Shown here: positions 6,391 to 9,146 of the stretch, piece after piece
Position numbering within the stretch: position 1 is the first letter of the stretch
Layout: the number at the start of each line of letters is the position of its first letter
Origin: a virus
Taxonomy: Duplodnaviria; Heunggongvirae; Uroviricota; Caudoviricetes
Length of the DNA stretch: 17,950 nt
Direction: 5' to 3' (one strand)
IMG/VR virus record: IMGVR_UViG_2663763326_000011
Program-made: the position numbers and the translations under genes
The notes under the pieces: model-generated
Told to the model about the DNA's origin: nothing
The model's input: only the letters and a program-made list of their open reading frames with translations
Databases searched by the model: none

Positions 6391-7245
6391 ATGCGAAACA
6401 TTGATCTTATCCGTCAGGTTATCAGTGCGTCTGAAAACAACTGGCCTCATGTGCTGGGCTGCCTGAACATAAATGTCCCTGACTCTCCGCGCCGTCATGC
6501 TCCCTGCCCTGCATGTGGGGGCAAAGATCGATTCCGGTTCGATGACAACGGGCGCGGTAGCTTCATCTGTAATCAGTGCGGCGCTGGTGATGGGCTGGAT
6601 TTAATTAAACGCGTAAATAACTGCGACACAACAGAGGCGGCGCTTCTTGCCGCTGATGTTCTGGGTATTGATTACCGGACAACGGAAACACCAGAAGCCA
6701 CCAGCCAGAAACGGGAACAACTGGAAACCGAGCGCCAGCGACGCGAACAGGAGCGCCTGAAAAGGGCAGAGAAGGACGAACAACAAAGACGGGATACGTT
6801 TTCCCGTCAGTTTGATGACATGCGCAGAAAGGCTGTAAACGGCAAATCTGATTATCTGGTTGCGAAAGGGGTAGGTGATTTTACATTCCCCGTGTTGCCC
6901 GATGGATCTCTGTTGCTGGCGCTGGTGGATAAATCCGGCGCAGTCACAGCAGCACAGACTATTACCTCACATGGTGAAAAAAGACTCCTGACAGGTTCAG
7001 CAAAGCGAGGGGCATATCACGCCATAAACGCACCAGAAACAACACAGAGCATCTTAATCGCAGAAGGGCTGGCAACGGCATTATCTGCCCATTTAATTCG
7101 TCCAGAGGCGCTGACAGTGGCGGCGATTGATGCCGGGAACCTGTTATATGTCGCCCAGGTACTGCGGGATAAATTTCCTTCAGCACAAATCATCATTGCT
7201 GCGGATAACGACCACAGCGAAGGAAGACAAAACACGGGAGAATAG
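6391..7245 (+). CDS. DNA primase N-terminal part: zinc-ribbon plus Toprim, P4 alpha-like; apparently truncated by frameshift
   Basis: CPACGGKDRFRFDDNGRGSFICNQCGAGDG is a CxxC...CxxC primase zinc-binding motif; Toprim DxD motif IIIAADNDHSEG lies near the C-terminus. The frame stops at TAG 7243-7245, 12 codons after the DxD motif. Confidence 0.8.
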   Translation: MRNIDLIRQVISASENNWPHVLGCLNINVPDSPRRHAPCPACGGKDRFRFDDNGRGSFICNQCGAGDGLDLIKRVNNCDTTEAALLAADVLGIDYRTTETPEATSQKREQLETERQRREQERLKRAEKDEQQRRDTFSRQFDDMRRKAVNGKSDYLVAKGVGDFTFPVLPDGSLLLALVDKSGAVTAAQTITSHGEKRLLTGSAKRGAYHAINAPETTQSILIAEGLATALSAHLIRPEALTVAAIDAGNLLYVAQVLRDKFPSAQIIIAADNDHSEGRQNTGE

Positions 7246-7280
7246 CAGCAGAAAAAGCAGCTTTATCTGTTTCTGGATGG

Positions 7281-9146
7281 GTGGCATTACCCCCGACAGA
7301 TCACAAAGCAGACTGGAATGATTACCACCAAAAACACGGCATTAAATGCGCCACAGAAGCGTTCAATAAGTCAATGTACCAACCACAGGGTAATGGCGTG
7401 AAACAGGAGCCACAGACCATTGAGGGAAGCGATTTTAAGGTTATGGATACCGACCCACTGAAACCAAGAATAGAAAGCCGCGAGGATGGTATTTATTGGG
7501 TATCTCCGAGAGCTGACAGCCAGAGTGGAGAAATCATCAATAACGAAAGCTGGTTATGTTCTCCGTTAAGCGTTATCGGTACTGGCAGAGACGATAAAGA
7601 CCAGTATCTCATTCTTCGCTGGCTGTCGTTTGGTTCTGAAACGCCGACAACCGCTGCCATTCCACTGGCTGATATTGGTGAACGTGAAGGATGGCGCACA
7701 CTTAAAGCTGGTGGGGTAAATGTCACGACCAAAAGCAGCCTCAGAGCAATACTGGCAGACTGGCTACAACGCAGTGGCTCTCGTGAATTGTGGCGTGTTG
7801 CTCATGCCACTGGCTGGCAATGCGGAGCGTACATCATGCCTGATGGGGAAATCATCGGAACACCTGAAAATCCTGTGCTGTTCAGCGGGAGAAGCTCAGC
7901 CGCAGCCGGATATACCGTCTCAGGGAGCGCGAAAAGCTGGCGTGATAACGTGGCGCGTCTGGCCTTTGGTAACTATTCAATGATGACCGGGATCGGCGCA
8001 GCACTGGCAGCGCCATTGATTGGGCTGGTGGGCGCTGACGGGTTCGGCATTCATTTCTATGAGCAGTCGAGCGCGGGTAAGACCACCACGGCAAACGTGG
8101 CGAGCAGCTTATACGGCAACCCTGATTTACTGCGGCTGACGTGGTACGGAACCGCGCTGGGGCTGGCAAATGAGGCCGCCGCCCACAATGACGGATTAAT
8201 GCCGCTTGATGAAGTTGGTCAGGGCGCTGATCCTGTCAGCGTTTCACAGTCTGCCTATGCGTTATTTAACGGTGTAGGGAAACTGCAAGGCGCTAAAGAT
8301 GGTGGAAACCGGGATCTAAAACGCTGGCGTACAGTGGCAATCAGCACCGGAGAAATGGATTTAGAAACATTTATCGCTACTTCCGGGCGAAAAACCAAAG
8401 CCGGGCAACTGGTGCGACTGCTGAATATTCCGTTGAGTAAAGCAGTACGCTTTCACGATTACCAGAACGGAAAACAGCACGCAGACGCACTGAAAGACGC
8501 TTACCAGCATCACCACGGCGCAGCCGGGCGTGAGTGGATTAAATGGCTGGCAGACCACCAGCAACAGGCTATTAAAACTGTTCGTGATTGCGAAAGCAGA
8601 TGGAGAAGCCTGATCCCATCCGATTATGGTGAGCAGGTTCACCGTGTAGCCGCGCGATTTGCCATTCTGGAGGCAGCATTGCTGTTAGGCGAAGTTGTAA
8701 CAGGCTGGGATGCTCAGACATGCCGTGATGCGATACAGCACAGCTATAACGCATGGTTGCGCGAGTTCGGCACAGGTAACAAAGAACATCAGCAGATTAT
8801 TGAACAAACGGAGGCATTTCTTAATGCCTATGGGCTTAGCCGTTTTGCACCATTTCCATACAGCCCGGCAGATTTGCCCATCAAAGATTTAGCCGGATAC
8901 CGTCAGCGTGGAGAACATGACGAAAGCCCAATGATTTTCTACACATTCCCGGCCACATTTGAAAAGGAGATCGCATGTGGTTTCAACGCAAAACAGTTTG
9001 CTGAAGTGTTGAAAAAAGCCGGGATGCTAACCCCACCAAACAGCGGTCGTGGATACCAAAGAAAATCACCACGTATTCAGGGACGACAAATAAACGTTTA
9101 TGTACTCAATTACCAGCCAGGAGATTATAACTCATCTGAAGAATGA
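7281..9146 (+). CDS. SF3-type replicative helicase/replication initiator (primase C-terminal part, D5/P4-alpha-like)
   Basis: Walker A YEQSSAGKTTT and Walker B-like LMPLDEVGQ. ORF-track start is GTG with no SD. This frame is open from 7209 and its first residues (ALPPTDHKADWNDYH) look like the distal Toprim DWND motif, implying continuity with the upstream ORF. Confidence 0.8.
   Translation: MALPPTDHKADWNDYHQKHGIKCATEAFNKSMYQPQGNGVKQEPQTIEGSDFKVMDTDPLKPRIESREDGIYWVSPRADSQSGEIINNESWLCSPLSVIGTGRDDKDQYLILRWLSFGSETPTTAAIPLADIGEREGWRTLKAGGVNVTTKSSLRAILADWLQRSGSRELWRVAHATGWQCGAYIMPDGEIIGTPENPVLFSGRSSAAAGYTVSGSAKSWRDNVARLAFGNYSMMTGIGAALAAPLIGLVGADGFGIHFYEQSSAGKTTTANVASSLYGNPDLLRLTWYGTALGLANEAAAHNDGLMPLDEVGQGADPVSVSQSAYALFNGVGKLQGAKDGGNRDLKRWRTVAISTGEMDLETFIATSGRKTKAGQLVRLLNIPLSKAVRFHDYQNGKQHADALKDAYQHHHGAAGREWIKWLADHQQQAIKTVRDCESRWRSLIPSDYGEQVHRVAARFAILEAALLLGEVVTGWDAQTCRDAIQHSYNAWLREFGTGNKEHQQIIEQTEAFLNAYGLSRFAPFPYSPADLPIKDLAGYRQRGEHDESPMIFYTFPATFEKEIACGFNAKQFAEVLKKAGMLTPPNSGRGYQRKSPRIQGRQINVYVLNYQPGDYNSSEE

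Follow-up and report, generated by a model that had tools for sequence, protein, structure and literature searches.

Gram-negative satellites of the phage-inducible chromosomal island (PICI) type carry int, alpA and pri in the same orientation, with the replication origin (ori) downstream of pri (PMC10111431). In the Staphylococcus aureus pathogenicity islands (SaPIs), Rep proteins bind iterons situated just downstream of their own gene, and SaPIbov1 and SaPI5 have primases of the AEP family (PMC7581432). Here we analysed a 17,950-nt stretch of DNA (hereafter the window), IMG/VR virus record IMGVR_UViG_2663763326_000011, which holds a ~17-kb island of the int-alpA-pri type beside yicC, extending from int (1-1269), just downstream of yicC, to a right-end repeat ahead of yicG. 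Our subject is the primase-helicase gene of this island at 6391-9146, where the original prediction, made from the letters alone, had seen a primase frame and a helicase frame and had proposed that they are one gene split by a frameshift inside the Toprim domain. We now find, with near certainty, that 6391-9146 is a single gene carrying a private, non-programmed deletion of one base. The gene and its parts, including the first open reading frame (ORF1), are as follows.

6391-9146, plus strand: the whole disrupted primase-helicase gene, a pseudogene as written, equal to the 2757-nt gene of WP_001244106.1 minus one G

6391-7245, plus strand: ORF1, the 5' fragment of 284 amino acids, with a zinc ribbon at residues 34-69, IAEGLATA, AADND and a premature TAG at 7243-7245

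7236-7238, plus strand: a GGG run, the site of the one-base deletion, placed by base-by-base comparison with ECONIH5 and EcPF7, by allele searches and by protein alignment

7209-9146, plus strand: the 3' fragment in the -1 frame, with the distal Toprim segment AAEKAALSVSGWVALPPTDHKADWNDY, a DUF927 helicase with the Walker A motif SSAGKTT, and a C-terminal domain

On re-reading, the coordinates originally given were all accurate. ORF1 ends in ...IIIAADNDHSEGRQNTGE followed by the TAG, which falls 10 residues past the last D of DND and 12 past the first. Its primase zinc ribbon was recognised by the Pfam profile PF08273 (E 6.4e-16; 58.8 bits, cutoff 23), and two Toprim motifs can be read in it, IAEGLATA being the glutamate motif and AADND the DxD motif; the Toprim_3 profile (PF13362) is matched only over positions 2-58 of 95 (32.4 bits), corresponding to the first ~60% of Toprim. 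The helicase frame lies at -1 relative to ORF1: it is closed by a TAA at 7206-7208, is open from 7209, where it begins with RPQRRKTKHGRIAAEKAALSVSGWVALPPTDHKADWNDYH, and runs to a stop at 9144-9146. DUF927 (PF06048) was detected in this second frame over profile positions 5-282 of 284 (E 1.7e-47), and the Walker A motif is directly readable in its translation. The earliest possible start codon of the -1 frame is a GTG at 7281, with ATG 7374, GTG 7398 and ATG 7443 as further in-frame candidates. As had been proposed, this GTG has no properly spaced Shine-Dalgarno (SD) sequence, the only purine-rich stretch upstream being a GGATGG that abuts it, with the GGA 3 bases upstream. As the sequence is written, no uninterrupted frame holds a complete Toprim domain; the incomplete Toprim of ORF1 is the defect itself, and no sign of another protein family.

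We compared 6391-9146 by megablast with 5,426 complete E. coli genomes, which returned 363 records at least 99% identical to it; the intact family is common, the gene stretch being carried by 353 of these 5,426 genomes, and is already named in RefSeq. In the best match, 2756 bases of the query align with 2757 bases of a record annotated as a single coding sequence, 'TOPRIM and DUF927 domain-containing protein'. Against both ECONIH5 and EcPF7, 2756 of 2757 positions are identical, and the sole difference is GGG at 7236-7238 in place of GGGG. The juxtaposition of the two frames is therefore not a matter of chance, since the 2756-nt stretch is an annotated, single 2757-nt gene minus one base. Restoring the fourth G yields RefSeq WP_001244106.1, a 918-residue 'TOPRIM and DUF927 domain-containing protein' which reads ...AADNDHSEGRQNTGRIAAEKAALSVSGWVALPPTDHKADWNDYH... 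at the break point and contains, from N to C terminus, a zinc ribbon, a Toprim primase, a DUF927 helicase and a C-terminal domain. In this repaired protein Toprim_3 is matched over profile positions 2-94 of 95 (55.9 bits, residues 221-318). As ORF1 matches positions 2-58 and the repaired protein positions 2-94, the split falls inside one Pfam domain and not between domains; the frame breaks at residue 282/283 of WP_001244106.1, and protein alignment shows that the deleted G belongs to the codon for the conserved Gly in NTG-x-x-AAEKAA. The islands of ECONIH5 and EcPF7 that encode WP_001244106.1 share with the window the same flanking genes and the same whole 17.9-kb island.

These comparisons bear out most of what had been predicted from the sequence alone. 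One gene is indeed split within Toprim, as a single added G gives a complete Toprim domain, and the distal Toprim motif proposed at the start of the helicase frame is real, the repaired match extending almost to the end of the profile. It had also been predicted that one extra nucleotide within 7209-7242 would give a protein of ~900 amino acids, which agrees with the G at 7236-7238 and the 918 residues obtained. The A-run at 7229-7232, offered as an example of where that base might be missing, proved to be the wrong site: alignment with intact homologues, the route suggested for locating the indel, puts it in the neighbouring G-run when ECONIH5 and EcPF7 are compared base by base.

The deletion was found in this sequence only. 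We searched complete-genome E. coli records with a 76-nt query corresponding to window positions 7200-7275 (GGG) and with the 77-nt intact version (GGGG). The 76-nt query matched 355 records, all within the 95-99% identity band and none exactly (0/355), and the 30 records listed for it were all aligned over 77 record bases at 98.7%. The intact 77-nt query was matched exactly by 339 of the 355 records; of the others, the two that were listed also align over 77 nt and must thus differ by substitutions, not by indels. Beyond these genomes, a 37-nt pattern bearing GGG had no exact match in viral, metagenome or GTDB representative-genome contigs, whereas its GGGG counterpart was present in 8 viral and 17 metagenome contigs. 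Exact-product look-up found no record of the product of ORF1 or of the second frame (ORF2) read from GTG 7281, and no independent assembly with the same split. Such missing protein records say little about whether the allele is real, since PGAP-style pseudogene calls leave no protein on record. The gene was without a match in the phages collection.

The relatives of the gene encode fused proteins. We searched 5.8 billion protein clusters and examined the best 120, all of which are 911-940 amino acids long, 80-100% identical and endowed with PF08273, PF13362 and PF06048 together. They span at least nine enterobacterial genera, comprising Escherichia, Salmonella, Enterobacter, Citrobacter, Klebsiella, Raoultella, Pseudocitrobacter, Pectobacterium and Lonsdalea. 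Across the break point, the pattern AADND-x6/7-N(T/A)G-xx-AAEKAAL-V-GW--PP-D-K-DW-DY is unbroken in all aligned homologues. A two-ORF layout with an independent helicase start, the arrangement that would speak against a split gene, was absent among the homologues compared, both close and distant; all are single fused ORFs, and the reading of one split gene stands. EC24 and Nord122, in which a 'DUF927 domain-containing protein' had led us to suspect a split, both proved to carry intact 2757-nt genes.

The GGG allele might nonetheless be expressed as written, either because a -1 ribosomal slip supplies the full-length protein or because the split pieces work as separate polypeptides, an explanation that we consider very improbable. 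A direct reading of the sequence shows that slipping by -1 on G_GGA would give the wild-type protein exactly: the P-site tRNA-Gly would move from GGA at 7237-7239 back to GGG at 7236-7238, producing precisely the wild-type ...NTGRIAAEK... The slip codon is preceded, at a distance of 11 nt, by an SD-like AAGGAAG (7219-7239), and in dnaX an SD-like element can stimulate -1 slippage; the same bases are present in the intact gene, and the nearness of AAGGAAG to G_GGA is probably a coincidence. Other hallmarks of recoding are absent, as the overlap (codon layout of 7210-7245) is without a slippery heptamer of the X XXY YYZ form and allows only the single-codon slip on G_GGA, the downstream RNA has a minimum free energy of -20.7 kcal/mol where shuffled sequences average -19.6 (z -0.37), indicating no stimulatory structure, and the 0-frame A-site codon GAA is not a slow one. 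Nor is the need for a shift conserved, being seen in 0 of the 355 related records and in 0 of the best 120 homologue clusters. With regard to separate polypeptides, the primase is not essential for replication in SaPIs (PMC7581432), such that a helicase-only product could in principle suffice, and in-frame ATGs are available at 7374 and 7443; the GTG at 7281, however, lacks a spaced SD sequence. We give equally little credence to an island that is attenuated instead of dead, in which a rare -1 slip of tRNA-Gly on G_GGA (7236-7239), perhaps aided by AAGGAAG, yields low levels of the 918-residue protein, or a helicase-only product begun at ATG 7374 or 7443 makes use of the host primase. Any read-through would be incidental leakage at most, and no mechanism. 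Since no other sequence searched has the deletion, we discard frameshift-dependent expression, one of the three explanations left standing by the original prediction, whilst the other two, a sequencing indel and an inactivating mutation, both remain. An exceedingly unlikely alternative is that primase and helicase are naturally two genes, or that the G-run is a phase-variable homopolymer switch. Some other mobile elements do have primase and helicase in separate genes (PMC7581432), which provides a precedent for a two-gene layout, but the break here lies inside a Pfam domain and all relatives in the best 120 clusters are fused. The G4 tract is far shorter than known contingency tracts, and the strains searched show no length polymorphism, with 339 exact GGGG and 0 GGG. 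We thus rejected both programmed frameshifting and a natural two-gene layout on the grounds of fused relatives, no heptamer, no RNA structure and a private deletion.

Whether the missing G reflects biology or assembly is more evenly poised. We think it somewhat probable that GGG is a real, recent, strain-specific loss-of-function mutation and represents decay of a resident island; it is also quite possible that the source strain has GGGG and an intact 918-residue gene, one G having been undercalled in the homopolymer. Several observations weigh on the side of such an artefact and against a real mutation. The change is of a single base in the length of a homopolymer, and a one-base undercall of this kind is a classic error of 454, Ion Torrent, PacBio or Nanopore assemblies. 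The allele is a singleton, present in no other assembly searched, and apart from the missing base the gene matches its intact counterpart at 100% identity. The remainder of the island is complete and looks functional, its two iteron clusters, int and alpA all being in place, and it shows no other sign of decay. The ORF1 and ORF2 products are on no record, as would be expected of an artefact, though a very recent mutation would look alike. On the other side, no substitution and only two indels separate the whole window from EcPF7. It contains 284 homopolymer runs of at least 4 bases (91 of at least 5, and 5 of 7), of which only the G4 run at 7236 differs from EcPF7; the other 283 match, longer ones included, and error-prone chemistries usually fail on longer runs first. 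This pattern is unlike that of a systematically homopolymer-error-prone assembly, and a lone differing run among 284 gives a slight preference for a real mutation. The second indel, AG at 17068-17069, ungaps the repeat of the attachment (att) core at the right end and looks biological, not like an error; as the only other indel is thus biologically sensible, a real mutation is again favoured. Real frameshifts are also common in resident mobile-element genes, and this gene is degraded in other strains: E. coli D2 (record positions 1692-3020) and AR_0069 (1692-3950) carry truncated pseudogenes of the same primase-helicase gene, caused by other lesions. Since these copies were truncated independently, decay of the gene in resident islands does occur. 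We infer that the mutation is real, which remains slightly favoured over an assembly error, a distinction that only the reads can make.

Two further features of the truncated copies were observed. In D2, a partial acyltransferase pseudogene directly follows the truncated primase-helicase gene, and the AR_0069 copy is without its C-terminus.

Around the disrupted gene, the island encodes, in order, int, an AlpA-like regulator, AntA, Ash, an Icd-like protein, the primase-helicase, homologues of P22-type ejection proteins and a PerC-family regulator. Integrase domains were found at 1-1266, and Phage_AlpA was matched at 2387-2602 within the gene at 2387-2605 (26.5 bits against a cutoff of 21). The motif GTTGGTTCA occurs in 12 exact copies in the window, against 0.18 expected, and these copies form two mirror-image clusters of six.

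9172-9282, strand not assigned: iteron cluster 1, with GTTGGTTCA three times in direct orientation at a period of 9, an AT-rich spacer and three inverted copies, beginning 26 nt past the primase-helicase stop

15376-15496, strand not assigned: iteron cluster 2, with GTTGGTTCA three times in direct orientation at a period of 21, an A-rich spacer and three inverted copies at a period of 9, intergenic and upstream of the PerC-family gene

The two clusters lie 6.2 kb apart, and GC content is ~32% across 9200-9299. Cluster 1 is a putative replication origin, or a cis element for the encoded initiator, and cluster 2 a putative second binding site; by analogy with crr/ori of phage P4, the pair may resemble a bipartite origin.

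The intact protein is most likely a self-loading initiator, in which the C-terminal part would recognise the iterons, whilst unwinding of DNA would fall to the DUF927 ring and priming to the zinc-ribbon/Toprim part. Loss of one G from GGGG would end translation at TAG 7243-7245; the remainder of Toprim and the entire helicase would stay behind in the -1 frame, with no usable ribosome-binding site of their own. The predicted product of the GGG allele, at 284 residues, would stop inside the NTG-xx-AAEKAA segment after the DxD motif and lack Toprim_3 positions 59-95, with an incomplete Toprim fold as the probable outcome. With no credible helicase start, little or no helicase would be made. The island would no longer start its own replication at the GTTGGTTCA iterons, and autonomous replication would be lost or severely reduced, a consequence that, like the reality of the mutation, we infer.

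For annotation, 6391-9146 should be entered as one frameshifted primase-helicase pseudogene, or as one gene if the run is GGGG; an entry as separate primase and helicase genes, or as a site of recoding, would be wrong. Should the mutation be real, this yicC-adjacent copy of the island is probably not self-replicating, which bears on the ability of the strain to mobilise it. Beyond correct annotation the finding carries little weight: it is a private one-base deletion in a known, widespread and annotated gene, and nothing new in kind. The two-cluster layout of GTTGGTTCA may interest those who study how P4-like and PICI-like satellites replicate.

Direct repeats of ~23 bp that correspond to the 3' end of yicC, CAGATTCAGAATATCGA[A/G]TAAGC, flank the island. 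The one at the right end, CAGATTCAGAATATCGAGTAAGC at 17061-17083, reproduces without a gap the yicC 3' end of the left junction (positions 791-813 of the compared record). EcPF7, FCI23, TUM1857 and G749, the four closest genomes, are without the AG bases in the right repeat, and the window's right-end version over the full 79-nt query is shared by no complete genome searched. The yicC region of K-12 MG1655 was tried as an empty-site reference for the att core and proved uninformative, having dinD and a different sequence downstream of yicC; as K-12 is of no use as an empty site, we keep the claim to attR being an ungapped repeat of attL. Just inside both ends of the island lie paired motifs resembling GTGTACATAA, namely CGTGTACATAAGGGTGTACGTAA on the right (16978-16999) and, on the left, CGTGTACATAGAGGTGTACATAA with two copies of ATGTACA (positions 920-975 of the compared record). 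These could be arm-type binding sites of the integrase, or binding sites of an excisionase.

Downstream of the putative origin, the genes at 10184-11539 and 11524-13641 encode the P22-type ejection-protein homologues (Pfam Inj_translocase, E 1e-74). PHROG matches in this region are 'released from the phage upon host infection', 'DNA transfer protein' and phrog_6704. A small int-alpA-pri island does not usually have such cargo, which gives a hint as to the kind of helper phage. A 355-residue open frame at 4051-5118 contains an Ash domain at residues 124-232 (E 4e-34), whilst over the identical EcPF7 sequence RefSeq annotates no more than a partial 'ash family' pseudogene, together with a small ORF and an Icd-like ORF read in a different frame; the gene model of 4051-5118 is unsettled.

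When set beside described replication systems, the protein combines features of several. P4 alpha (NP_042036.1, 777 amino acids) resembles it over the zinc-ribbon and Toprim half, at 33% identity (E 2e-41, residues 7-361), in an alignment that crosses the break and takes in EG-x-ATA, DxD and the distal LPP...DWND segment. The two proteins share PF08273 and PF13362, and past residue 361 they have no significant alignment: D5_N, DUF5906 and Pox_D5 are found in P4 alpha, whereas in the window protein DUF927 alone is found. The island would also be P4-like in fusing primase, helicase and initiator, and in having iterons in two separate clusters, one directly downstream of the gene, in the manner of crr/ori; it differs from P4 in that sid, psu and delta are not among the island annotations seen. 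The description 'P4-alpha-like', used in the original prediction, therefore fits the logic of the system and the N-terminal half, and does not extend to family membership of the whole protein, as the helicase half is of the DUF927 type and not D5_N/DUF5906/Pox_D5.

The helicase half instead points towards the staphylococcal islands. Residues ~402-813 match PDB 8tch_A, 'Pathogenicity island protein' (E 1e-11), a likeness to SaPI Rep, and the same half matches 5dgk_A, 'Active helicase' (E 0.007), and NCBIfam SCCmec Cch1 (E 8e-10); 8tch and 5dgk are its closest relatives of solved structure. The relationship is a distant one, and the match to SCCmec Cch1 is weak, at 38 bits against an NCBIfam cutoff of 700. 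SaPI Rep and Cch are self-loading helicases of the DUF927 kind, and Cch has the SaPIbov1 Rep helicase among its relatives. By analogy with SaPI iterons, which follow rep, the cluster at 9172-9282 directly follows the primase-helicase gene and may play a similar part. In contrast to SaPIbov1 and SaPI5, with their AEP primases, the window protein has a fused primase of the DnaG-type Toprim kind. In its overall plan the island resembles the Gram-negative PICIs, with co-directional int (1-1269), AlpA-like gene (2387-2605) and pri (6391-9146), a putative ori downstream, and then captured genes of phage late type; integration beside yicC and the P22-type ejection-protein genes are features of this island.

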